A stretch of 53,140 nt of DNA from a virus (taxonomy: Duplodnaviria; Caudoviricetes), in the IMG/VR virus record IMGVR_UViG_3300048575_000211, positions 1-53,140 of that record; one strand, written 5' to 3'. The notes under the pieces are model-generated. The model was given only the letters and a program-made list of their open reading frames with translations. It ran no database searches and was not told the origin of the DNA. Positions 1 to 52,172 of this stretch are shown in pieces (the first letter of the stretch is position 1; every line of letters begins with the position of its first letter). A program made the position numbers and the translations under genes.

Positions 1-147
1 AGAGCAACTCGCCCTTGCCAGCCAACGCTGTGAAATAATTGGCTTCATGTGCTAGAGAGTTGCAGCTAACAAAAGTTCGACTGCTCCCTCAACGACATCG
101 CTCGCATCACCGGGAGTCTCCTTAGCCGGCGTTCAGTTTAACACCGG

Positions 148-612
148 ATTCTGGGCGGCTATGACCTAAAAGGCTTCTATTCGCTCGAAGAGTATTACGC
201 CACGGACCTCCCCTCTTACTATGAAGCATTGGCCGTGGGCCCATCCCATAACTACTACATGGGACGCGCCGAAGCCGACATCACAGGATGGGTTGAATAT
301 TTCTGCCTAGGGATGGCGGAGTCGTTCGACGCCGTTCAAGCCCAAGCCAGGGAGGCCGCTGGTTCGGCAGTCAAGGATCAATCCGCACTCTTGCGGCAGC
401 TCGATGCGAGACAGCGAAAAGCGCTCGCTCTCTTTGAGAAAAACAAACAGATCACGGCCCCGCAGGTTGGCGAGCTATTGAATTTAAAACCACGAACGGC
501 CCGCGAGCTCTGCCACAAATGGACAGAGGGGGGATTTTTACTTGTGTCTGACCCCGCGAAAAAAAACCGCAAGTATGTTTTGCACAAAAAATTCGCCGGA
601 CTGATTTCTTGA
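148..612 (+). pseudogene. 5'-truncated Fic-family protein (C-terminal part with winged HTH)
   Basis: Fic-like GGYDLKGFYSLEEYY...GPSHNYYMGR...DITGWVEYF starts just after an in-frame TAA (139-141); no HPFxxGNGR catalytic motif; C-terminal HTH (ITAPQVGELLNLKPRTAR). Confidence 0.75.
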
Positions 613-940
613 TCCGCTGGGCGTCCGTGATTGAGAAACCCGATAAGCCGCACTTTAAAAAAGTCGAAAAGGCCGCTCTTAAGAAGAGAAAGTCGCGATT
701 CTTGCTGCGATCATTAGCAGGGCGCCAACCTCTATTTACCAGTTGGCACAGCTGGTGGAACGCGATTTCGCCAATGTCCAGCGCGATTGCACGGCACTTG
801 AAGCGATGGGGCTCATTCGCCTGGAAGAAACCGGCGGCGTGAAAAAGTCCAAAATGCCCAAGCTCGCTTTTGATTTCGATCGAATCGAGATTCACAGGCC
901 CTATGTCACCTATTCGCATAACTTAGGTGGCGCGGCATAA
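609..940 (+). pseudogene. Frameshifted/degenerate HTH regulator or antitoxin (HVO_A0114-like)
   Basis: SQLAQLVERDFANVQRDCTALEAMGLIRL HTH in ORF 743-940; the upstream part lies in another frame (609-842). Confidence 0.55.
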
Positions 941-1147
941 GCAGGGATCCGTTCGCACACAAAAAAACGGTAGAGCAGCCGTCCACGTCGAAATTTTCGA
1001 GGAGATCGCCGGTCGTGGTCAACCGATGCGCGTTCTCAAACATTTTTTATCATGTTCGCACCTCTCATCTGACCGATGGTCTCCCGGTGTCCCCGCGCGG
1101 AATCGCTCGTATTTGAACCGCCTAGAATCTTTGAATTTATGAGGCAA

Positions 1148-1984
1148 TCAATTTTCTGTCGTAAATAATTGTTCACAAATAATGGAGCGAACTCGGCTGC
1201 GGCTGATATGTGTCGAAAATGGAGAGTTCACTGACAGCGTGGCATTTAGTGAATTACTTCGTGATCCCTTTTGGGGATTCGTATTGAATCGCCCATCAGG
1301 CTCTAAATTTTTTCGGGCAACGTATCGCCAAGCTTGAACCGGGATACCTCTCGCCCCAGCTTCGAGCTCCACGTCCACCAAGTTCTCTGCGCTATCATCG
1401 ATGATCACGATCTTCCGTGGCTGAATTCGAGTCTTATCGAGAAAGAGTGCAAGTGCGCGGCCTTTCCTTGAGCCGGTAGAAAAGATCACGCCATCACTCA
1501 TAAGAACACCGTGACCCAATCTTGAGATATCATTGACGGAGTCCCGGCTTGTGACAATGCCTAGCGAATGCATTTGGGCCAGCGTAAAAGGAATCATCTC
1601 TGGATCTCGCGCAGTCAGTGCATGCAGTCTGATACCAGCGATCACAAGATTGTTTAGGATATCGGGAGTGTTCTCCTCAATCAGCCAAAGTCTTGAATGA
1701 TTGTTCAATTGGTCAAAAACCCGTTGGATTACCTTCGTTAGAAGCTTGCCTCTTACGCCAAGACTAATGGCTTCACGAGTAAGCTGTCGGAACCAACGAT
1801 TTGAACCAACACCGTCGATTGAGTGAAAAAGAGTGCTGTCGATGTCAACGAGAACAAGCGTGTCCGGCTCGACCTCACTCAAGGCCTCTTTCATCGAGCT
1901 TGTTGTTCTGGGACTCGCCAGACACAATGCCGAATACATCTGTACAAATAAAAGCAGTACGCTGACATAAGAGCGAAACTTCAT
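1148..1984 (-). CDS. Secreted HAD-superfamily protein (DUF2608-like)
   Basis: Signal peptide MKFRSYVSVLLLFVQMYSALCLA; HAD motifs LVDIDSTL, LTAR, K, IIDDSAENL. Confidence 0.75.
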   Translation of the reverse strand: MKFRSYVSVLLLFVQMYSALCLASPRTTSSMKEALSEVEPDTLVLVDIDSTLFHSIDGVGSNRWFRQLTREAISLGVRGKLLTKVIQRVFDQLNNHSRLWLIEENTPDILNNLVIAGIRLHALTARDPEMIPFTLAQMHSLGIVTSRDSVNDISRLGHGVLMSDGVIFSTGSRKGRALALFLDKTRIQPRKIVIIDDSAENLVDVELEAGARGIPVQAWRYVARKNLEPDGRFNTNPQKGSRSNSLNATLSVNSPFSTHISRSRVRSIICEQLFTTEN

Positions 1985-2590
1985 GGCATTTCCTCGCGGA
2001 ACGAAAGTTGATAGCCAGACGTCGAAGCTATGACCACTCAACACGCATTATTTCAAGATGGGCTCCCAAGCCATCTCACAGTTCGTAAACTGCAAGACAT
2101 GCGCTCACCGGTGAACCGTCTCATTTTAAGTCATTGATATCGACGAGCACGATATTCGGAGATGGGCTTTGCCCATGCCGGTCGGCAATGGATGTACGCC
2201 GAGACAGTCAGTTCCGCGATTGTCTTTGTCTTATTGCTTTTCGCTGCCGCAACAACGTCGTAAGAAGTCGAGACTGCGAAGATCAGGAAAATCATGGGTA
2301 TGTGACGCATTCTCACCTCCGATGAGATCGTTCATCGCGTTCATTTTTTGGGTCAACAAGGAGATCGCTCCTGGGGGCCTGAGCGCGTTCAAATGAGCGC
2401 TGAATAGCAATATTGCAGGATCAAGCTTCGCTTTTATCGAAAGTTGAAATCGACTTCTACCAGGAAGTCAGTATTCAAACAATTTCCTTCAGGTGGCCAG
2501 AATGGCGGTGCATTTCAAGACAAATTGAGGAAGTAGGAGAATTTCATGAGCCCGGCATAATGTTGTCAGGCTCGCATACAAGATCGAAGT

Positions 2591-3575
2591 TTACGGGGAA
2601 CCCTTGGACGGAATCCACGTTAAACTAGAAGTATTTGCCATTAGAAGCGTGGCAGGCACCCAGACGCTGCCGTTTTCACAAGGATAGCTATACCGAGGCT
2701 TTCCGTGCTTGTCGAAGCAGGTCTTCCCGAGACTATCTCTCAAGAGAAGTTCACACTCTTTGGTGGCGGAGTTGAACTTTCGACCGATGATGACAGATGC
2801 ATGGCTATTTAAAGGGCCATCTGTACGCCCGTGCAAGACTCCAGGCATGTACGAAATCGCAATCGGGATGGGATGAGGGCCGCTAAGTAGTTCTTGGACT
2901 TTGCCCTCGCGAGCTTTGGCCTCTTGCGCCTGTGTGGCTTTGCCCACTGAAACCATGCGCCTCCGAAGCAGCGGTATCCGCGTTCGATCGAGGTTGGGAG
3001 ATACGACTTCATCAACTATTGCCCAGTATTCAGCGTCGAGTTCCGGATCAGCTTTTGCGATGAAGATTTGGGGCGTTGGGAATTTGATTTGAAGATCATG
3101 GCTTTCACAAAAAGCGACGAGGAATGTTTCTGTCGATGTGACCGGATCGTTGAGCTTTGCTCCAGCTATGACGGCTCTTAGATTGTCAGCGAGATTTTCG
3201 CCTTGAAACGAAGCGGTGCCAGCCGCGAAAGTGGTATTGGCTGGACAGGAGAGCGCGCTGGAATTGCCTTCTTTGGAGGTTCCTCTTTCGAGTCCTGACA
3301 ACGCTGATTGCCACTCATGGATTTGATCGAGTGAATTCCGTAGGAACTCGACCGTCGATCTGGGTTGTGGTTTACGGTTTGTTACTTGAGATTGTAGTGC
3401 AGCATAGCTTTCAAGCCAACGTTGATCACAGACACGGCGCTCGTTACTTCTCGAAGGGACCACCGTTTTGATCCAAACGGACAGTCGAGCAAGCATGATC
3501 GGACGCGGCCGCATGATCACAAGCAGCAATATTGAAAAGCACGAGTGCGGTTGTTATGGCCGTCGCACGAGACAT
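2591..3575 (-). pseudogene. Internally deleted/frameshifted secreted papain-like (C1-type) cysteine peptidase
   Basis: MSRATAITTALVLFNIAAC...CSTVRLDQNGGPFEK* starts at 3575 and stops early; a second frame (2591-3529) carries HASVIIGR...LLRDSLG (His and Asn/Asp segments) but no catalytic Cys segment. Confidence 0.55.
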
Positions 3576-3896
3576 TAAACCCATTCTAATTGATAGATTC
3601 GCTTATCAAGATATGCAAAGTGCTGCTGAAGTATTTCTTCTGGCCAAGTGGCGAGGAGGTTAATTTTCAATAAGCCGTTGGTCGAGTGCTGTGCCCTCCA
3701 GCCTCTCGCAAATTGAAAATTCGCCTTTTGGGGCGGACTTTGATGGTGATTTCGGACTGCCCCTACTCGCGCGCCTTCTTCGCAAGAGCTTGGTCGATTT
3801 CCCAGACGGATTCGGCGATCAGTGCGTAATACGCCTTTTGCCTTTGGGGGCTTCGATTGAATTCCAAACACGGCTGGCCCCGGAAGCGGGTTCGAG

Positions 3897-4310
3897 GTGA
3901 TGGCAACACCCTCCCTCGCATCCACACATAGCTTCTGTCTCCCGGGAGCCGTCCCACTCAAAGTTCTTGTGATCGACGACACGAAGGACATGCATGAGTT
4001 ACTTCGGGTGTTCCTCAAGAGGGAAATGAACGTCGACGTAACCGAAGCTCCGTCAGGCCACGCCGGGATTAAACAAATTCAGACCAATCACTTCGATCTC
4101 GTTGTCTGCGATCTTATCATGCCAGACAGTAGCGGCCTTGATGTCATGGCGTATCTCCGAGCCCGCCTCGAAATCGACACATGGTTCATTCTTTTCACCT
4201 GCGCGAAAAACACCTTAAGCCACCGCCAACTCGAAAACATCGTCGCCATCGAAAAGCCAGGCTACGAAGAACTGATCGAGACGATTAAATGGCTGGTGTC
4301 GACGCGGTGA
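3897..4310 (+). CDS. Single-domain response regulator (CheY-like receiver)
   Basis: VLVIDD, phosphoacceptor DLIMPDSSGLD, FT and KP motifs; true start may be downstream. Confidence 0.85.
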   Translation: MMATPSLASTHSFCLPGAVPLKVLVIDDTKDMHELLRVFLKREMNVDVTEAPSGHAGIKQIQTNHFDLVVCDLIMPDSSGLDVMAYLRARLEIDTWFILFTCAKNTLSHRQLENIVAIEKPGYEELIETIKWLVSTR

Positions 4311-4361
4311 CTATGTGGTGATCCCGAACGCGGTGGTGGTATTCGGCAATTGAAATTCGGA

Positions 4362-4805
4362 TCAGTTACGCGAATTAGGCAACAATTCAGACATCAGGTC
4401 TTTTTTGAATTTGTCGTCATCTTTATCTGGGCATCCGGGCACGAGCCGCTCGTAGTCCTTCATGGCGGCAATCATATCAGTCATCTCTTGAATGAGGTCG
4501 ATCTTCGGATAAGCGACATACCCTTCTTCGTTCGCGTCTGGATGTTGCGGTTCATATATCAGACGTTCACCATGAACCGCCGAAATGGTACATTGGGTGC
4601 CTGCGCAATCGAGCTTCTTTCTCTGATAAGCACCGCCTTGCGGGATGCGGGTCGAATTGATGTTCACGATATTGGAAGCGATCACATCCATTCGCATGCG
4701 TTGCTGCTCCTTTAACTGACATGCACTCAGCGACTCAGTTGCTGAAGAGCTGACCGCCGGGATTACAAAGAGGCAAAAGACAGAAAGTACACATCCCAAC
4801 TTCAT
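4362..4805 (-). CDS. Orphan FlgC-like basal-body rod protein with N-terminal signal peptide
   Basis: RMDVIASNIVNINSTR...YQRK...YEPQHPDANEEGYVAYPKIDLIQEMTDMIAA is FlgC-type; GGAGGG RBS; hydrophobic leader. Confidence 0.8.
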   Translation of the reverse strand: MKLGCVLSVFCLFVIPAVSSSATESLSACQLKEQQRMRMDVIASNIVNINSTRIPQGGAYQRKKLDCAGTQCTISAVHGERLIYEPQHPDANEEGYVAYPKIDLIQEMTDMIAAMKDYERLVPGCPDKDDDKFKKDLMSELLPNSRN

Positions 4806-5189
4806 TCGTCCCTCCAGCATTATTGAGCAAAGTTTCGAAACCTAATTTTACACCGACTCAGTATCCACCAAAGTAGTCCTGTTTGGTTGGCTCGAGCTGC
4901 TTCTCATCCTTGGTCCTGCCCATGGTGACGACAAGTGGGCACCTGAGACATCCCGCACATTCGGATTGGTGCTGATGACACGGTGATGCTTGTCGGTGAT
5001 CAACCGGCTATCTATCGCCTCAGGACTCTTCGTCTCAACGAAGCGGGGTCAAGGGCGAGCGCTACTCTTACTATCGGCTTACGCTGTTAGGCTCGCGCAC
5101 GAGGACAAAGTGTCATTCGATTACTCGACGGGCCCATGCATAATTTTTCTTATACCATCCTCGGAAAGGTCGCACGTCGACACCCGGAC

Positions 5190-5589
5190 CGGTAGAATCA
5201 ATAATTTCGTCGGGGCTAATATAGGACATATTCTCACCAGGCGAGAACTCTCGGACAGTGAACGCTACATTGCTGCATTTGGCGTCGCAACGCTTGGTGG
5301 GATCGAGATCATCGCGGCGGGTGCTCGGCTCGCAAAAGACGCTGATCGCCTGAGAGCTAACTTCTCCGCGATCGAAGGCCTTTCACCAGCTCAAATTGCG
5401 GAGAAATTCTCGTTGGATAAAATCCCTAATAAGATCATAGATATTATTATTCCAGCGGGGACCCGGCTTCGAAAAGGGACTCCCGCGAAAGTGATGTTAG
5501 GCAAAGAATCTCGAGAGGCGCCTCGTCAGTGGGAAATTGTCGACAAGGCCAAACCAGAATGGTTTAAGAATTTCCGGTTATTGAAATGA
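5190..5589 (+). pseudogene. Polymorphic toxin C-terminal remnant (pre-toxin TG-like segment plus toxin tip)
   Basis: RELSDSERYIAAFGVATLGG resembles a pre-toxin segment; GLSPAQIAEKFSL..IPAGTRLRKG..QWEI resembles toxin tips; no delivery domain. Start approximate. Confidence 0.5.
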
Positions 5590-5933
5590 GGAGCGCTATG
5601 ATGTCATTTAAGGGAAATAAACTTATATTCTACGGGCATGTGGTTACTCTCATGCACAAGATCGATAAAATTGTAGAGATCCCTCAGGGCCTTCTGGTTC
5701 TCACGGAGTTCAGCTCATGGAAGAACGATCGCAATGCGTATCTTGTGGGTCGCGATGGTGTTGTGAAATGGCAGATCGAACAAGTCGGCACAGATCCAAA
5801 GGCCGGACCACAGCCGTATACAGGAATAGGCATCGATAAAGACGGAAACATTCACGCTCACAATTGGGCTGGATTCGCATGCCTGATCGATATAGAAACG
5901 GGAAAGATCATCAGCAAGAAGATGGTGAAATAA
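5586..5933 (+). CDS. Putative immunity protein
   Basis: ATGA overlap with the toxin-tip stop; small beta-rich protein (NAYLVGRDGVVKWQI...NWAGFACLIDIETGKII). Confidence 0.6.
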   Translation: MRSAMMSFKGNKLIFYGHVVTLMHKIDKIVEIPQGLLVLTEFSSWKNDRNAYLVGRDGVVKWQIEQVGTDPKAGPQPYTGIGIDKDGNIHAHNWAGFACLIDIETGKIISKKMVK

Positions 5934-5976
5934 AAAAGGCACAGAACGGGCCAGGAACTTCTTGTTGAATAAAGAT

Positions 5977-6022
5977 TAGCGAGAGGCGGACTTGAACCGC
6001 CGACCTGCGGATTATGATTCCG
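5977..6022 (-). repeat. Displaced 3' half of tRNA-Met (att-like repeat, 46 bp)
   Basis: Matches 7814-7859 with one mismatch. Confidence 0.92.
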
Positions 6023-6134
6023 ACGATGCAGCCGAGCATATTATAACGCATTGAAATTACAGATGGAATCAAGCTTTCAATGGGCTGTATTTTTGATTGG
6101 TAGGAGGCGCGGGAGCGCGATGAAAATCGGGACA

Positions 6135-6171
6135 TTGACAGCGTGGCGGTCGCGTTATAACATGTTATAAC
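6135..6171 (+). promoter_or_regulatory. mazEF promoter with palindromic operator
   Basis: TTGACA (6135-6140)-17 bp-TAACAT; perfect 18-bp palindrome GTTATAACATGTTATAAC (6154-6171) just before the ATG. Confidence 0.8.
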
Positions 6172-6172
6172 T

Positions 6173-6436
6173 ATGAAAACGTCTGTCAGAAAAATTGGTA
6201 ATTCCTTAGGTATCATTCTCGGCAAAGAAATCACTGGGCCTCTTCAGCTTCATGAATCGGATGAACTCGAGGTATCAGTGGCTCGCGACGGACGAACAAT
6301 TTTAATTTCTCCTCTCCTATCGCCTCATGCGGAATGGGAAGCTTGGTTCAAAACTCACCCTAAAATCAAATCGGAAGGCCTTCTTTTAGATGAAGACGAG
6401 GGATTAGCCGCCGATGAGGAAGAGTGGGTTTGGTGA
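6173..6436 (+). CDS. mazE: AbrB/MazE-family antitoxin
   Basis: VRKIGNSLGIIL AbrB motif; acidic tail ending EEWVW; directly upstream of MazF. Confidence 0.88.
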   Translation: MKTSVRKIGNSLGIILGKEITGPLQLHESDELEVSVARDGRTILISPLLSPHAEWEAWFKTHPKIKSEGLLLDEDEGLAADEEEWVW

Positions 6437-6771
6437 TGAAGCGAGGCGAAGTCTACTTAGTCAGTTTGAAACCGACCGAGGGCCGAGAAATCATGGGAAA
6501 GGGTCGCAACGAAGCTCGGCCTTGCGTAGTTGTTTCGCCAGATATTTTAAACGAGCGGTTGGGTACAGTCATGGTGGCTCCTATGACCTCTAAACGGAAG
6601 AACTTCCCATGGCGAACGAAAATAAAGTTTGATGGAAAGCAGGGCGAAATCGTGACCGAGCAAATCCGCACCTACGATCGAACGAGCCGTAGATTTATAA
6701 AAAAGCTGGGATCTCTTACTGCCTCCGAAATGCAAGACTGCCTTTCGCAGCTTCGACTGATCTTTTCATAG
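6436..6771 (+). CDS. mazF: PemK/MazF-family endoribonuclease toxin
   Basis: MKRGEVYLVSLKPTEGREI...RPCVVVSPD..N...VAPMTS...EQIRTYD. Confidence 0.92.
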   Translation: MKRGEVYLVSLKPTEGREIMGKGRNEARPCVVVSPDILNERLGTVMVAPMTSKRKNFPWRTKIKFDGKQGEIVTEQIRTYDRTSRRFIKKLGSLTASEMQDCLSQLRLIFS

Positions 6772-6936
6772 CGATAAGAAAGATGAGATCCAGAGATGCG
6801 TCGTAATTTTAAATTTCTAAACTACCTCTTTCTTTCTCTTCTGCTCTCTTGCGCGACGACCTCTAAAAATCCGGCATTGGTGCCGGAAAAGCCCGCTTCA
6901 GCGAAGTCGAACAAAAAGCCCAGGATTATATAAAAA

Positions 6937-6952
6937 TGGTAGCGAGAGGCGG
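6937..6952 (-). repeat. Short tRNA-Met 3'-end repeat (16 bp including CCA)
   Basis: TGGTAGCGAGAGGCGG, identical to 7811-7826 and likewise preceded by an A-run. Confidence 0.8.
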
Positions 6953-7058
6953 TATTGCCTACCCATGATAAGTACCTAAAATGACGTAAATCGATTGTGC
7001 GCGATTCGCCAGAAGAGGAAATTCGCAGCATCTGCGTCGATTTGTTTAAACCCTGAAC

Positions 7059-7331
7059 TCAAGCCTTTGCCTTAAGCGGAAACTTCGCGGGCTCCTGAAG
7101 AGAGGCGAGGCTTAGATCAATATCTAAACTTTTCCAATAAAGATGGCGGCCGTGGACCAGTTCAAAGTCATAAACCTGCTCGATCGTCGCCGATTTGAAC
7201 CACGGAAACTCCTCGTAGTTCAAAAAATACTCCCGCCCCAACACAAGCATCCAAATGCCGAATTGAGAGATGTGAAGGATTTCAGCTTTCGAAATACTTC
7301 TTCCACGCTTTAACGATTTCATGCTGATGCT
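7059..7331 (-). CDS. DUF2442-family protein (putative antitoxin)
   Basis: FLNYEEFPWFKSATIEQV...HLYWKSLDIDLS; coupled to the DUF4160 gene; start uncertain. Confidence 0.8.
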   Translation of the reverse strand, partial: SISMKSLKRGRSISKAEILHISQFGIWMLVLGREYFLNYEEFPWFKSATIEQVYDFELVHGRHLYWKSLDIDLSLASLQEPAKFPLKAKA

Positions 7332-7521
7332 CCTCAACGACTTTTTGCAACTCAACAAGCTGACGTTTGGAGAGCCCGACAAAGTCTGCTAACGAAACTG
7401 TTGGCTCCAACCAAAACTTCGCTTCACCATCAGGACATGTGACATGCACATGCTGTCGAGTCTCTTCCCGCGAAAAGAAAAAGAACCGATACGCCTTATA
7501 TCGAAAAACCGTCGGACTCAT
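7282..7521 (-). CDS. DUF4160-family protein (putative toxin)
   Basis: MSPTVFRYKAYRFFFFSREE..HVHV...EAKFWLEP...WKKYF; GGAG RBS. Confidence 0.88.
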   Translation of the reverse strand: MSPTVFRYKAYRFFFFSREETRQHVHVTCPDGEAKFWLEPTVSLADFVGLSKRQLVELQKVVEEHQHEIVKAWKKYFES

Positions 7522-7724
7522 TAGTTAGCTCCGGCTTACGCCTACGCCCATTCGCGACAAGCGCTCATTCATTAGTTAGCTCCGGCTTACGCCTACGCCC
7601 ATTCGCGACAAGCGCTCATTCATTAGTTAGCTCCGGCTTACGCCTACGCCCATTCGCCTATGAGCTTCGGCCTCTGGCCTTCGCCCGCTCGCACCGAGTG
7701 CTCGCTCATGACAAGCGCTCATTC
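7520..7724. repeat. 51-bp tandem repeat x3, third copy interrupted by a 52-bp insert
   Basis: ATTAGTTAGCTCCGGCTTACGCCTACGCCCATTCGCGACAAGCGCTCATTC at 7520, 7571 and 7622; insert at 7658-7709. Confidence 0.95.
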
Positions 7725-7810
7725 GTATTCATAGTTTTCAATTGTTCGACTTCAGAATGAAGTCTTTTTCTTCAAAAGATCCATCATAACCCCGCCGGAG
7801 CGACAAAAAA

Positions 7811-7859
7811 TGGTAGCGAGAGGCGGACTTGAACCGCCGACCTACGGATTATGATTCCG
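7811..7859 (-). repeat. Integrase-proximal prophage att site (3' 49 nt of tRNA-Met)
   Basis: 47/49 identical to 52096-52144; adjacent to the integrase. Confidence 0.95.
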
Positions 7860-7954
7860 GATAAACCACGGACGCAAGCGAATGACTTCGCTTTTTTCGA
7901 CCTCAAATGAGGTGTGATTTCATATGTTTGGCATCCATTCTGCCTTGTCGATCC

Positions 7955-8003
7955 TGGAATCATACCTGCCGCAGGCCTCCTGCCTGGAATCACAGTGGAA
8001 TCA
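7955..8003. promoter_or_regulatory. Putative integrase arm-type sites (TGGAATCA x3)
   Basis: TGGAATCA at 7955, 7985, 7996; matching pair at 51904 and 51915. Confidence 0.7.
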
Positions 8004-9242
8004 GTCCTTTTTCTGACGCTCAATGCTAACAACGTTGGCTTCTGGCGCGCCGATCTCGAAAACTGTCGCCTTCGATACAATGTGGTCTTTCGAAAACTTC
8101 GCGTACCGCTGAGTTGTTGTGAGTGACGCGTGCCCAAGAATCTCGCGAAGCTCCTCGAGTGATCCACCAGCCATCACGAACTGGCTCGCGTATGTGTGCC
8201 GCATGTCGTGCGGTCTGATGTACTTGACTTTCGCGATCCGGCAGCACAGCCGGTGGAGCTGGTAAATCCGAAAGCAGCTCTCCGGCCGCCCGTCCGGACG
8301 CGGGAATACAAAGTCGCCTGGATCCGTGAACGGGACGGAATTTCTGCGCAGTAGAAATGCATCAACCACAGACTGGTTAAGACCAAGGGTCCGAGACTTC
8401 TTACCCTTCGTACGCTCGCGAATCGCAAACCCGTCTTTTGGGTCCTGAATCTTGCTTATCTCGTAACGACTCTGATCAAGATCGATGTCTGAGTTATAAA
8501 GAGCGAGGGTCTCGTTCTCCCTGGGACCACCGTTGAGAGAAAAGATCGCCCAACAGAAAAACACTGGCCCAAAAAACTTGCCGACTGATACGCGGTATTC
8601 CTCACGCGAGTTGGCGAGACTCTCAAGATCCTTTGCGATTGCGAGGTAACGCGCGCACTCCTCTTTCGTCCAAAACGTGCCCTTGTCTTCCGGACGTCCT
8701 TCATCGCGAGAGGCTACCTTCGCGACCGGGTTCGCGATCGCGTGATTCTCCAAAATCGCATCCTCGAAAAAGCGGCTCAGCAAAGCACGAATCCGATTGA
8801 GATACGCATCGGAGAGCACATCCTTTCGTTTCTTCGGATACTTCGCCGTCTTTGCGCTCTCAATAAGATCTTCAATATGATCTGGCGTAACCGTATGCAT
8901 TAGAAGAGTTCCGAAGCGCACGCCGCTGACAACACCTGGATTGATGTAGATCTCGAACTTCGCTCCTTCGTCAATCCACGTTCCTTTGACTGCCGGCTTG
9001 CGGCGACGGCCGCGAATCATTCCGATGACCTCGCCTCTCTCGCGGCGACGCATGAAGACCTTGGAGTAGGTCTCGACGGCGATCGGAACCAACACAGCTT
9101 TCGGAAGTTCGAGACCATTTCGTATCAGTTCGCGCTTGTCTTGCTCAAGCGCCTGCCACTTGCGCGCGCTCTTTGCGTTCTTGAACCGCTTCTGAATGAG
9201 CTTGCCGCTCGCATCTCGCACCGCATACTTGCGATTAGCCAT
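8001..9242 (-). CDS. int: Tyrosine integrase
   Basis: GPRENE (R), PHDMRH (HxxR), LGH, TQRY catalytic residues; next to att. Confidence 0.95.
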   Translation of the reverse strand: MANRKYAVRDASGKLIQKRFKNAKSARKWQALEQDKRELIRNGLELPKAVLVPIAVETYSKVFMRRRERGEVIGMIRGRRRKPAVKGTWIDEGAKFEIYINPGVVSGVRFGTLLMHTVTPDHIEDLIESAKTAKYPKKRKDVLSDAYLNRIRALLSRFFEDAILENHAIANPVAKVASRDEGRPEDKGTFWTKEECARYLAIAKDLESLANSREEYRVSVGKFFGPVFFCWAIFSLNGGPRENETLALYNSDIDLDQSRYEISKIQDPKDGFAIRERTKGKKSRTLGLNQSVVDAFLLRRNSVPFTDPGDFVFPRPDGRPESCFRIYQLHRLCCRIAKVKYIRPHDMRHTYASQFVMAGGSLEELREILGHASLTTTQRYAKFSKDHIVSKATVFEIGAPEANVVSIERQKKD

Positions 9243-9609
9243 TTCTCAGGCCCTCTTTTTGAAGACGGCGCATCTCGCGAATCGCTTCGAGCGTCGTCTC
9301 ACCGCTCGCGATTTTCTCGCGAAGCTCGCGACATTCGGCGATGTGACGAGCAAGGAAGCGCACGTCGCGCCCTTGCTTCTTGCAGTCGATGAGACCGATA
9401 GACTTCCAATGATAAACCGTGAACGGGTTGACACCGAAGTGCTCGGCGACCGCGTTGACTGTGTACATCGGTTCAAGATCTTCGATTCGCATGATTTCAG
9501 CTTTCGCCGGCGCCGGCGTCGCTGCTACACGCGGCTGGCGAATTCGCGGCATCGGCTTCTGCTGTTCTTCCTCGTGCCACCATCTGGCCTTCCCTGTTTG
9601 AGCTCTCAC
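9235..9609 (-). CDS. xis: Excisionase-like HTH protein
   Basis: MYTVNAVAEHFGVNPFTVYHW...GRDVRF; overlaps the int start. Confidence 0.75.
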   Translation of the reverse strand: MRAQTGKARWWHEEEQQKPMPRIRQPRVAATPAPAKAEIMRIEDLEPMYTVNAVAEHFGVNPFTVYHWKSIGLIDCKKQGRDVRFLARHIAECRELREKIASGETTLEAIREMRRLQKEGLRNG

Positions 9610-50159: not shown

Positions 50160-50398
50160 GCCACGATCTCCCCTCTTTTGAATTCGCCCGGATACCAACC
50201 AGACGCTACGGATTCGCGGTCTGACTTCTGCATCGCGAACTCGCATTCGAGATGCATCCGACCGGAGTTGAAGTCGCCCTCAAACCGATAGACGCGGTAA
50301 AAATGCAATTCACCTTTTTGAACCGTTTCGCCGCACCACTCGCAGCTATGCGCCGCGCGTGCGACCCGGTACGTGCTACCGATTTCGGAGTAACTCAT
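50156..50398 (-). CDS. Zn-finger phage protein
   Basis: ARAAHSCEWCGETVQKGE...HLEC. Confidence 0.7.
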   Translation of the reverse strand: MSYSEIGSTYRVARAAHSCEWCGETVQKGELHFYRVYRFEGDFNSGRMHLECEFAMQKSDRESVASGWYPGEFKRGEIVA

Positions 50399-50652
50399 GA
50401 CACCACCTCACCGAGCGCAGTCGTTACCTTTCGCCAATCAGGTATCGCCATATCCAAGAGATCGTCCTCAGATATCCCGCTCAGACGCGACGCGAGCGCC
50501 ACCATGTTTTCATGAAGTGTCTTCGGAGAAATGAGATCGAGACCAACAAGGTCTCTCACCTTCGGACTCCTGATGGTGATCAACTCAATCGTTGTTGATC
50601 CGAATAAGAACCGCTTCGACTTAAGTGGCTCGCATAAAACGATCGTCTTCAT
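50395..50652 (-). CDS. P2 gpE/Mu gp41-like tail-assembly-chaperone homolog, outside the tail module
   Basis: ITIRSPKVRDL...ALASRLSGISEDDLLDMAIPDW pattern. Confidence 0.7.
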   Translation of the reverse strand: MKTIVLCEPLKSKRFLFGSTTIELITIRSPKVRDLVGLDLISPKTLHENMVALASRLSGISEDDLLDMAIPDWRKVTTALGEVVS

Positions 50653-51875
50653 TGGCAGACCTCCCCGCGCTCTTGCGCGCGCCGTATGATTTCGGCCTCC
50701 GTCGCGGCCCCTTGGACTTTGGTGTTGAACGACTTCGCGCGGGCATCGGGCGGAATCGGCGCCCCCGAGCGAACCTCGGTGAGCAAGACGGCGCGATCGT
50801 CCATCAACAGCCGGACGTCGTGGGCGCGCTGCTTGTAGTAATTATTGGGCTTCGCGTAAAACCAACCGAGCATGAGCGGAGCCTCGTCGCGGCCGACGGC
50901 TTTGACGAAGTTCGAGAGAATGCCGTTGACGTCGGCGCCCTCGATCGGATCGGCGCCCGAGTATGTCGCGCGGTGAAGCTTCCGGCGAATCTCCAAAAGC
51001 TCCGCCACTGGCGTTTGTGAGACCACCTCTGCGTTCTTACCCTTCCCCCGGCGTTTTGCGGGCGGTGGCGGTATGATGGCGTTTGAATTCGGGGCATTCT
51101 GGATCTCATCCTCGATCACAATTTCAGCCTCAACGAGTTTCGGGGGCGGCTCGTCGGCTGGAGCCGATGAGCAATCCGGTTCGTCGCCAAAGAAACTCGG
51201 GTCGAAGAAATCACCGGTGTCGTCGGCCGGAAATTCGTTCACCGTCGGCGCAACCCCATTTCCAGTTCCATTTCCAGTTCCATTTCCAGTTCCATTTCCA
51301 GTTCCACGACGTAGATTCCGCTCGGGTTCGTCGCTGATTCGTGACGGGTTCGTTGCGGGTTCGTCTCGAGATTCAGGAGAGTCTGCGTAACTGTCGATAG
51401 AGACTGCTTTTCCGAGTTTCACCCATTCAACGAAATCAATTGCCGCGCACGATTCGGCATTCGGATCTGGCAAAACGCTCTTTGCCTCGTCTGTGCGCGG
51501 TTTTTGATGCAAAAGCCAGCTCGGAACGACCCCGAAGGTCTTCTCTTTGACCGACGCACGAATGCGCGACGCTCTCGACCCGAGTTCGTTACGAGGTCGT
51601 GACGAGTTCTCGTCGGATTCTGATTGAACGCGATACCTCTGAACGAACCCGAACTCCCAAAGCAGATCGAGAACGCGAGAGGGATCGCACTTGTCGTGTG
51701 GAAGAACTCGCGATTTATAGGCGTCCGCATCCCACTCGAAGCGCCCCTCCCGATCGCTGATTGTCCACAGGCCGGCGAATGCCACGCGCGTCGGCAGTCC
51801 GGTCTCGAATTCAAGTTTCGCGAGCAGCTCGTGGGTGAAGAATTCAGGTTTGATAGTCCGTATCCATGACTTCAT
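50649..51875 (-). CDS. Phage replication initiator protein
   Basis: RTIKPEFF...GLWTISDREGRF N-terminal domain; low-complexity linker with DNA repeats; RBS AGGAG. Confidence 0.85.
   Translation of the reverse strand: MKSWIRTIKPEFFTHELLAKLEFETGLPTRVAFAGLWTISDREGRFEWDADAYKSRVLPHDKCDPSRVLDLLWEFGFVQRYRVQSESDENSSRPRNELGSRASRIRASVKEKTFGVVPSWLLHQKPRTDEAKSVLPDPNAESCAAIDFVEWVKLGKAVSIDSYADSPESRDEPATNPSRISDEPERNLRRGTGNGTGNGTGNGTGNGVAPTVNEFPADDTGDFFDPSFFGDEPDCSSAPADEPPPKLVEAEIVIEDEIQNAPNSNAIIPPPPAKRRGKGKNAEVVSQTPVAELLEIRRKLHRATYSGADPIEGADVNGILSNFVKAVGRDEAPLMLGWFYAKPNNYYKQRAHDVRLLMDDRAVLLTEVRSGAPIPPDARAKSFNTKVQGAATEAEIIRRAQERGEVCQ
51258..51305. repeat. 12-bp perfect tandem repeat x4 (encodes GTGN x4)
   Basis: (ATTTCCAGTTCC)4. 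Confidence 0.95.
51323..51366. repeat. 11-bp-period iteron-like array (putative origin)
   Basis: CGGGTTCGT at 51323, 51345, 51356 and degenerate at 51334; related array at 51581-51613. Confidence 0.6.
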
Positions 51876-51903: not shown

Positions 51904-51922
51904 TGGAATCAAGGTGGAATCA
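51904..51922. promoter_or_regulatory. Putative integrase arm-type sites (TGGAATCA x2)
   Basis: 11-bp spaced pair, same spacing as 7985/7996. Confidence 0.7.
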
Positions 51923-52022
51923 AGACGGATTAAAACGGACCAAATTGCCGCAAAATGGAGCAAATTGGACGCAGTGAGTAAATACAGATTGTTGATTGGA
52001 AAATCGGAGAGCGCAGAAACGC

Positions 52023-52095: not shown

Positions 52096-52172
<77 letters not shown>

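Follow-up and report, generated by a model that had tools for sequence, protein, structure and literature searches.

The virus record IMGVR_UViG_3300048575_000211 was analysed as a complete stretch of 53,140 bp, host flanks included, and this whole stretch is called the window here. It contains a tRNA-Met gene, a 44-kb tailed prophage beside it and, beyond the prophage, three displaced copies of the 3' part of the tRNA. These copies bound two units of less than 1 kb, the first with a mazEF toxin-antitoxin (TA) pair and the second with a DUF4160/DUF2442 pair. The array probably arose by successive integrations into one tRNA gene, after which the older elements were deleted down to their addiction modules. 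The host appears to belong to the order Bdellovibrionales (Bdellovibrionota), to judge from the assignments of metagenome-assembled genomes (MAGs) and from the synteny in which the tRNA and the right-flank gene are conserved.

The proposed history is as follows. The 3' part of the tRNA-Met gene would be the attachment (att) site of elements that carry tyrosine integrases. Each integration would give the tRNA a new 3' part and shift the old one outward, so that a ladder of displaced copies builds up. In the order of events that we infer, the newest element would be the 44-kb prophage (7860-52095). Two older elements would have shrunk by internal deletions to less than 1 kb, each retaining only its tRNA-side end with a self-promoted TA pair, and one of the deletions would also have taken 33 nt of the middle att copy. 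The TA pairs would persist because their loss is counter-selected while the surrounding DNA erodes; addiction, defence against phages or both are possible reasons.

The tRNA and its displaced parts are these:

52096 to 52172, minus strand: functional tRNA-Met(CAT), called by ARAGORN and by sequence and alignment
7811 to 7859, minus strand: displaced tRNA-Met 3' part of 49 nt, from the CCA to the 5' strand of the anticodon stem (repeats and alignment)
6937 to 6952, minus strand: 16-nt stub of the tRNA 3' end with AAAAA before it at 6932-6936 (repeats and alignment)
5977 to 6022, minus strand: outermost displaced tRNA-Met 3' part of 46 nt, with one internal mismatch, G at 6008 (repeats and alignment)

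ARAGORN found a single tRNA in the window. The 16-mer of its 3' end, with up to three mismatches allowed, has four matches (5974, 6937, 7811 and 52096) against a shuffle mean of 0.41, and none of 100 shuffles reached four. A repeat search found 5968-6022 and 7805-7859 to be 91% alike across 55 nt, and 6932-6957 to have 21 nt in common with both. No tRNA 3' copy beyond the four was found by a local-alignment scan of the whole window. The three displaced parts lie in one orientation, all downstream of the real tRNA and at lower coordinates. A preliminary description of this DNA had reported that the copies bound two units of about 0.9 kb, and the measured lengths of 914 bp (unit 1, 6023-6936) and 858 bp (unit 2, 6953-7810) agree with it. 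Both long copies stop at one position of the anticodon stem, 6022 and 7859, as phage attachment (attP) sites of one kind would be expected to do.

The position of the crossover is suggested by the T stem. It reads GCCGG/CCGGC in the functional tRNA and GGCGG/CCGCC in the displaced copies, and this compensated pair is the only difference between 52096-52144 and the 49-nt block 7811-7859. The GGCGG/CCGCC form at 7811-7859 is the one usual in the host's order. Among the matches listed from 384 genomes of the order, 126 of 138 have CCGCC; a 33-nt tRNA pattern was found in 135 of the 384. A Bdellovibrionota MAG has in its tRNA region (locus L034) a stretch with 100% identity to the region of 7811-7859 over 55 nt. 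The 3' part of the working tRNA (52096-52144) is taken to be phage-supplied, the distal copy keeping the T arm usual in the order, and 7811-7859 is the predicted distal att site of the prophage. The block of identity runs from the anticodon stem to the 3' end of the tRNA, with an apparently element-supplied 3' part, as with tyrosine integrases that target tRNA genes. Because the T-stem differences separate the working tRNA from the displaced copies, the exchange would have taken place beyond the T stem towards the anticodon, within the anticodon arm or variable loop (7840-7859). In 2002 Williams reportedly distinguished sublocation classes for the crossovers of tRNA-targeting integrases, the anticodon arm among them. 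As an observation in its own right, the T stem of the lysogen's tRNA-Met has changed on both strands from the usual form of the order, and its pairing is kept.

The middle site is truncated. The stub at 6937-6952 keeps the T stem's 3' strand together with the acceptor strand and the CCA, and it lacks the T loop, the variable loop and the anticodon arm. Since the putative exchange region is missing from it, the two units are predicted not to be separately excisable, and at most the pair of units (5977-7859) would be bounded by two core-bearing sites. The preliminary description had proposed two separate att-flanked cassettes, and at this internal boundary that proposal fails.

The two units contain the following genes and signals:

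6135 to 6171, plus strand: promoter-like TTGACA-17-TAACAT over an 18-nt perfect palindrome at 6154-6171 (sequence, self-match)
6173 to 6436, plus strand: mazE, 87 amino acids (aa), Pfam MazE_antitoxin (PF04014), E 5e-5, 23.6 bits (cut-off 24.7, narrowly missed)
6436 to 6771, plus strand: mazF, PemK-type toxin, 111 aa from the ATG at 6436, Pfam PemK/MazF (PF02452), E 4e-25
7059 to 7382, minus strand: DUF2442 gene, longest open reading frame (ORF) 107 aa, Pfam PF10387, E 1e-11, 45.3 bits, profile positions 3-71 of 72
7282 to 7521, minus strand: DUF4160 gene, 79 aa, Pfam PF13711, E 4e-16, 59.5 bits, profile positions 2-65 of 65

MazE, MazF, DUF4160 and DUF2442 are the sole ORFs with Pfam matches in 6023-7810, and the four match their respective profiles over nearly the full length. 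A Pfam scan of the ORFs found no integrase in unit 1 or unit 2, so the earlier statement that one unit holds only mazEF and the other only DUF4160/DUF2442, with no integrase, is borne out. None of the six small proteins had a PADLOC match. Unit 1 is predicted to encode a MazEF type II TA pair, that is, an mRNA interferase and its antitoxin. The MazF match scores 88.5 bits (cut-off 23.1) and spans profile positions 1-109 of 109, and the toxin gene is preceded by an overlapping MazE-type gene, the overlap depending on whether mazF starts at the alternative GTG at 6424 or at 6436. The promoter-like element (6135-6163) lies upstream of mazE and is read, together with the palindrome, as promoter and operator of mazEF.

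Unit 2 holds a predicted DhiTA-type pair, with DUF4160 as the toxin-side and DUF2442 as the antitoxin-side partner. The DUF4160 gene is directly followed by the DUF2442 gene, and the two overlap; an alternative ATG at 7322 would give a DUF2442 protein of 87 aa. In table 1 of PMC8198452 a DUF4160/DUF2442 pair is entered as the DhiTA type II TA pair of Dickeya dadantii 3937, and according to a passage of PMC12065111 it is common for two such genes to be arranged with DUF4160 first and DUF2442 next, in the same order as here. The present pair has the same two Pfam domains as DhiTA, in the same order and with overlapping genes. Its similarity to DhiTA is at the level of the Pfam families only, and here a 51-nt tandem repeat precedes the pair. 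The mazEF and DUF4160/DUF2442 pairs lie on opposite strands.

The prophage beside the array has its own predicted recombination genes, and short motifs near the att copies may tie it to unit 1. The relevant features are these:

6064 to 6073, plus strand: single TGGAATCAAG, 42 nt from the 5977-6022 att copy and identical to the motifs at 51904 and 51915
7955 to 8003, plus strand: three TGGAATCA motifs in the gap that separates the att copy from the integrase gene's end, candidate arm-type sites (motif count)
8001 to 9242, minus strand: tyrosine integrase, 413 aa, Pfam Phage_integrase, E 7e-18
9235 to 9609, minus strand: excisionase-like MerR/HTH_17-type gene, 124 aa, upstream of the integrase gene, Pfam MerR_1, 27.7 bits (cut-off 21.6)
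51904 to 51924, plus strand: two TGGAATCAAG motifs in the prophage arm that adjoins the tRNA, candidate arm-type integrase sites (motif count)

The integrase lies at the far end of the prophage and the tail genes at the tRNA end. The excisionase-like protein scores 19.9 bits with HTH_17, which is under that profile's cut-off of 27. The motif TGGAATCA occurs at eight sites in the window against 2.45 expected, and none of 100 shuffles reached eight. The sites include 6064, 7955, 7985, 7996, 51904 and 51915; unit 1 has one, unit 2 has none, and the prophage arms have three and two. The exact 10-mer TGGAATCAAG is found in the whole window at 6064, 51904 and 51915 only, each time on the same strand and less than 200 nt from an att copy. 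The motif that the preliminary description had noticed at 6064, beside the 5977 copy, is thus a TGGAATCA/TGGAATCAAG site. The common end base of the long copies and the confinement of TGGAATCAAG to these three positions are two hints that a related integrase served the element from which unit 1 derives. The spacing from motif to core is 42 nt at 6064, compared with 96-145 nt in the prophage. The two units show no similarity to any part of the resident prophage in tblastx and blastn searches against the window. The placement of TA modules at the phage's own landing site stands; the adjoining prophage has its own integrase, excisionase-like gene and candidate arm-type motifs. The idea that the units are cassettes mobilised in trans fares less well, since unit 2 has no TGGAATCA and unit 1 only one.

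Related strains in public metagenomes indicate how the ends of the units vary. In nine public runs, which come from three studies, only 5-11% of the words sampled from 5000-9300 are present. Four of them (X1, X2, X4 and X5) were compared as assembled Logan contigs at a likeness threshold of 85%. Such contigs cannot reveal rare circles or empty sites, and the parts left uncovered, namely unit 2 in X4 and 7880-9300 in every run, are uninformative on presence. A contig of X1 links the gene at 5586-5933, the left copy and mazE. It matches 5655-6006 and continues at 6107-6179 (this side is 73 nt long; depth 3.9), and the gap of 100 nt begins inside the left copy, taking out the anticodon part of that copy and the 6064 motif. 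A second X1 contig covers mazEF at 6214-6592 with three differences. In X4 a contig of depth 3.5 has mazF (6455-6794), then 82 unlike letters, then 42 nt that match 7806-7847; in this strain the tRNA copy behind mazEF appears to be long, with no stub, and the spacer is a different one. A 1,233-nt contig of X5 matches 6120-6876 at 94% identity and has 6028 joined to 6120 (depth about 26). In a 7,249-nt contig of equal depth (about 26) from the same run, a tRNA copy is joined to a fragment of DUF4160 that has diverged. X2 covers 7139-7415 of unit 2, where one of 277 nt differs, and the left-flank gene is present in X1 and X2, which come from the same study.

The end points in these contigs do not fall on repeat boundaries, and mazEF is conserved throughout. 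The preliminary description had said that its cassettes would be refuted if relatives showed internal deletion remnants with variable ends. This is in part what the strains show: 6006 joined to 6107, an 82-nt spacer followed by a long att copy, and 6028 joined to 6120. At the sequence level mazF is evidently under purifying selection. Among the 39 differences listed between the window and the 94%-identical X5 contig, mazF has 26 changed codons, 23 synonymous and three non-synonymous, and mazE has eight, five synonymous and three non-synonymous. The TA genes thus appear to be conserved under selection, and the DNA between them and the repeats varies by strain.

Several points weigh against a history of successive integrations and decay. 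The truncated stub, the variable ends and the one motif at 6064 speak only indirectly for an origin by deletion, and neither a parent element nor a gene fragment was found. In neither unit was a pseudogene fragment seen, be it of an integrase or of another element gene, by tblastx and blastn searches that compared the units with the window and did not extend the spacers to databases. The strain evidence consists of short Logan contigs at 85% likeness, two of them at a depth below 5, where errors are possible. No empty site or intermediate state was found as a full sequence, since the genome, viral and metagenome searches turned up no close relative's genome. The outermost copy has GAT in place of TGG and hence no CCA, and its trailer is unlike that of the tRNA genes of relatives; a simple ladder model gives no account of either. 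Lastly, the outer copies keep the whole anticodon arm and TGGAATCAAG stands at 6064, so that excision of the 1.84-kb pair of units, with or without the prophage, might occur.

This last point leads to the alternative that survives best, which we nevertheless regard as unlikely: the two units together (5977-7859, 1.84 kb) could be a live element, mobilisable in cis or in trans, that is moved by the resident integrase and excisionase alone or with the prophage and so spreads its TA pairs. Both outer copies have a complete anticodon stem-loop and the same end base, the integrase and the excisionase-like gene are in the adjoining prophage, and the three occurrences of TGGAATCAAG, one of them at 6064, all lie close to an att copy on one strand. 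Co-transfer of a tandem made of a cis-mobilizable element (CIME) and an integrative and conjugative element (ICE) is in print, as part of PMC5704250 relates. Unit 2, however, which would be needed for the other arm, has no TGGAATCA, and the spacing of the 6064 motif differs from that in the prophage. The mismatch of the left copy falls within the anticodon stem. X1 lacks the 6064 motif and part of the left copy and X5 skips 6029-6119; both kept mazEF, and the 6064 motif is dispensable in the two. No close copy of either unit was found elsewhere in searches of viral and metagenome contigs. MazF had no match among viral contigs and 86 relatives among metagenome contigs, the best full-length match being at 50%; none of the best 80 of these 86 distant loci has a tRNA within 3 kb of mazF, although only 17 have 3 kb on both sides. 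A narrower form of the same idea, which seems slightly less probable again, is that the double TA unit is a minimal hitch-hiker at the landing site that the resident integrase occasionally excises with the prophage. If this were true, two addiction modules would be loaded on the phage genome, a case of gene capture by accretion; alternatively, cells that lose the whole array would be penalised.

Successive integration followed by decay has also to be weighed against an artefact of assembly, in which the 49-55-nt repeats would have joined pieces of different strains or loci into all or part of the array. Assemblers are known to mis-join at repeats of about 50 nt, and the window is a metagenome-derived virus record. 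Moreover, no independent contig bridges unit 2 to the integrase side over 7811-7859, nor unit 1 to unit 2. On the other side, the repeat at the boundary of the two units is just 21 nt, which is too short to confuse assemblers that use longer words. One X1 contig runs from the left-flank gene through the left copy to mazE, and one X4 contig links mazF to an att copy. The near-identical part of unit 2 in X2 and the left-flank gene in two runs of one study point the same way, and the layout is biologically coherent, with the integrase gene and arm motifs beside the distal copy. We consider an artefact very improbable.

The least credible alternative, that the tRNA tails belong to a structured RNA or are what is left of a tandem tRNA gene (RtT-like repeats or a second, decayed tRNA-Met), beside which the TA genes were inserted later, draws on an end-to-end match of the Rfam tRNA model to 5977-6050 (24.3 bits, E 0.0045 in a 251-base stretch), but this score is below the gathering score of 29 and stems from the 3' part, three of seven acceptor-stem pairs are non-standard, no RtT or other Rfam family appears in 5500-8100 at E up to 1, the shared stop of both long copies in the anticodon stem fits a recombination boundary and not gene decay, and the distal copy directly adjoins an integrase with arm motifs. 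A whole pseudo-tRNA at 5977-6050 (minus strand) was likewise tried and rejected, being below the Rfam threshold and having an unconvincing 5' half. The 28 nt past the att copy in this stretch (minus strand) hold a GCTCGGCTG stretch that resembles the D arm of the real tRNA, a likeness that is probably due to chance.

Successive integrations followed by decay would place the array among known accretion structures. CIMEs are described, in the part of Guedon et al. (2017; PMC5704250) that defines them and sets out a three-step accretion scenario, as integrated elements that have decayed, with loss of the integration genes and retention of the flanking att sites. For CIMEs and for arrays formed by accretion, the same paper cites Pavlovic et al. 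(2004) and Bellanger et al. (2011). The present array resembles CIMEs and the accretion arrays of ICEs and of IMEs (integrative and mobilizable elements) in this kind of decay. The pair of units is flanked by attL/attR-like copies of the target gene's end (46 and 49 nt, with the anticodon arm), and it has no integration or transfer genes of its own, the four TA genes being the only Pfam matches. Neither unit alone is flanked in this way, as the two share the 16-nt stub. The differences from CIME arrays are that the newcomer here is a tailed prophage and not an ICE or IME, that the units are shorter than 1 kb and hold TA pairs only, and that one internal att is a stub, so that only the unit pair has two core-bearing att sites. 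Tycheposon islands of Prochlorococcus offer a second likeness, one of array layout. In the part of the preprint that bears on them (Hackl et al., bioRxiv 10.1101/2020.12.28.424599), these islands are stacked elements with partial tRNAs between them and degenerate remnants. There, as here, repeated tRNA integration pushes earlier elements inward and leaves partial tRNAs between neighbours, and degenerate remnants and extra partial tRNAs are also present. Tycheposons differ in host (here the order Bdellovibrionales), in element type and in cargo, which is nutrient-uptake genes in their case and addiction modules in ours.

The preliminary description had called the array integron-like. Integron and superintegron arrays are small units stacked by a site-specific recombinase, some of which are only a TA pair and are thought to stabilise the array. 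The likeness extends to small stacked units near a recombinase, some of them with TA genes only. The boundaries here, in contrast, repeat a tRNA 3' part directly and in a single orientation; they are not attC sites, which are imperfect palindromes that act as folded single strands. The internal boundary is truncated, and the recombinase is a prophage integrase with arm-type motifs. The mazEF pair has its own predicted promoter and the two pairs are on opposite strands. Neither an IntI-attI system nor a common promoter was recognised, the only integrase being inside the 44-kb prophage; an IntI-specific signature was not looked for. The comparison with integrons is accordingly dropped.

Integration at the tRNA-Met gene has apparent counterparts elsewhere in the order. 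The 33-nt pattern is present in two copies in three of the 135 genomes that have it. In one of these (G028, a complete genome of the same order) both copies are on one contig, 2.38 kb apart: the tRNA-Met gene is followed by 2.3 kb, then by a 49-nt copy of the 3' part and then by RecQ.

G028:C1:501000-509000, 1455 to 3911, strand not stated: islet L141, from tRNA-Met to the 3'-part copy

The only genes of this islet are a 495-aa fusion of N6_N4_Mtase and Mrr_cat (methylase-nuclease) and a 70-aa ORF, and it has no integrase. By analogy, its cargo would be an addiction or defence type of gene, as in the islets of the window. Compared with the copies of the window, the displaced copy of G028 takes in at least 10 nt more of the tRNA. 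In a second genome (G040) an integrase adjoins the tRNA at the end of a contig, and the displaced copy is on another contig. The layouts of these two genomes therefore indicate that tRNA-Met serves as an attachment site elsewhere in the order.

Other database searches found distant relatives. Of the 384 genomes of the order, 294 have a match to the right-flank protein, the highest identity being 53%, and a search of genome contigs with this protein gave no confirmed relative. Among viral contigs the integrase has five loci, all distant (27-49% over parts), and a 30-nt att pattern has no match. DUF4160 has two viral loci at 50-61%; at both, an overlapping ORF of 82-83 aa comes next, which by eye looks like the DUF2442 partner, and neither locus has a tRNA.

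Some further features lie in and around the array:

4990 to 5933, plus strand: an overlapping pair of ORFs, 199 aa and 115 aa, directly next to the outermost copy and pointing towards it (ORFs, ESM Atlas)
6870 to 6887, minus strand: terminator-like hairpin with a T run, about 50 nt downstream (in the sense of the tRNA) of the stub
7518 to 7657, no strand: 51-nt tandem repeat of 2.7 copies with 100% matches (repeat search, sequence)
50395 to 50652, strand not stated: tail assembly chaperone, at the tRNA end of the prophage

The two ORFs beside the outermost copy (4990-5589, 199 aa; 5586-5933, 115 aa) had been read as a toxin/immunity pair. Two overlapping genes do abut the copy, but their toxin/immunity nature is not upheld, as neither has a Pfam or PADLOC match and the lead to a toxin is below threshold. 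The 199-aa protein, which has no clear start, falls near TNT clusters in the ESM Atlas with a score of 0.86, below the bar of 0.9. The 115-aa protein is DUF7957-like (ESM Atlas score 0.96; structure TM 0.86), and its structural matches in the Atlas are beta-propeller proteins of the PQQ/WD40 type. As a guess from these models, the two could be an orphan toxin C-terminus and its immunity gene. The left flank further out (1-4900) is mixed. A DUF2608/HAD-like protein is encoded at 1148-2044, an orphan response-regulator receiver at 3897-4310 and, on weak matches, a short FlgC-like rod protein at 4362-4820, beside ORFs without a Pfam match. This flank may be a variable region and not core chromosome.

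The hairpin in unit 1 overlaps a doubtful 45-aa ORF (6796-6933) that has no Pfam match. In unit 2, the 51-nt repeat sits directly upstream of the DUF4160 gene, and each copy carries the ribosome-binding site and ATG of that gene, opening a mini-ORF of eight codons. A longer, related unit of about 103 nt precedes the copies (7658-7724). A contig of X2 has a copy of 7524-7567 with six differences in 44 nt and with unlike surroundings. Within the prophage, a 408-aa gene (50649-51875) was considered as a second integrase and rejected, as it has no Pfam match and no likeness to the integrase and adjoins the tail chaperone.

The array is an ordinary example of integrated elements that pile up and decay, and it indicates no new mechanism. 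Its value is that of a small, clean case in which an integration hot spot records its own history and shows which genes outlast their carriers. In this array and in one relative genome, the genes that survive are of the addiction or defence type, namely two TA pairs and a methylase-nuclease fusion, which fits the view that such genes resist deletion. The case comes from a poorly sampled lineage of the Bdellovibrionales, and it supplies concrete att pairs for recombination testing.

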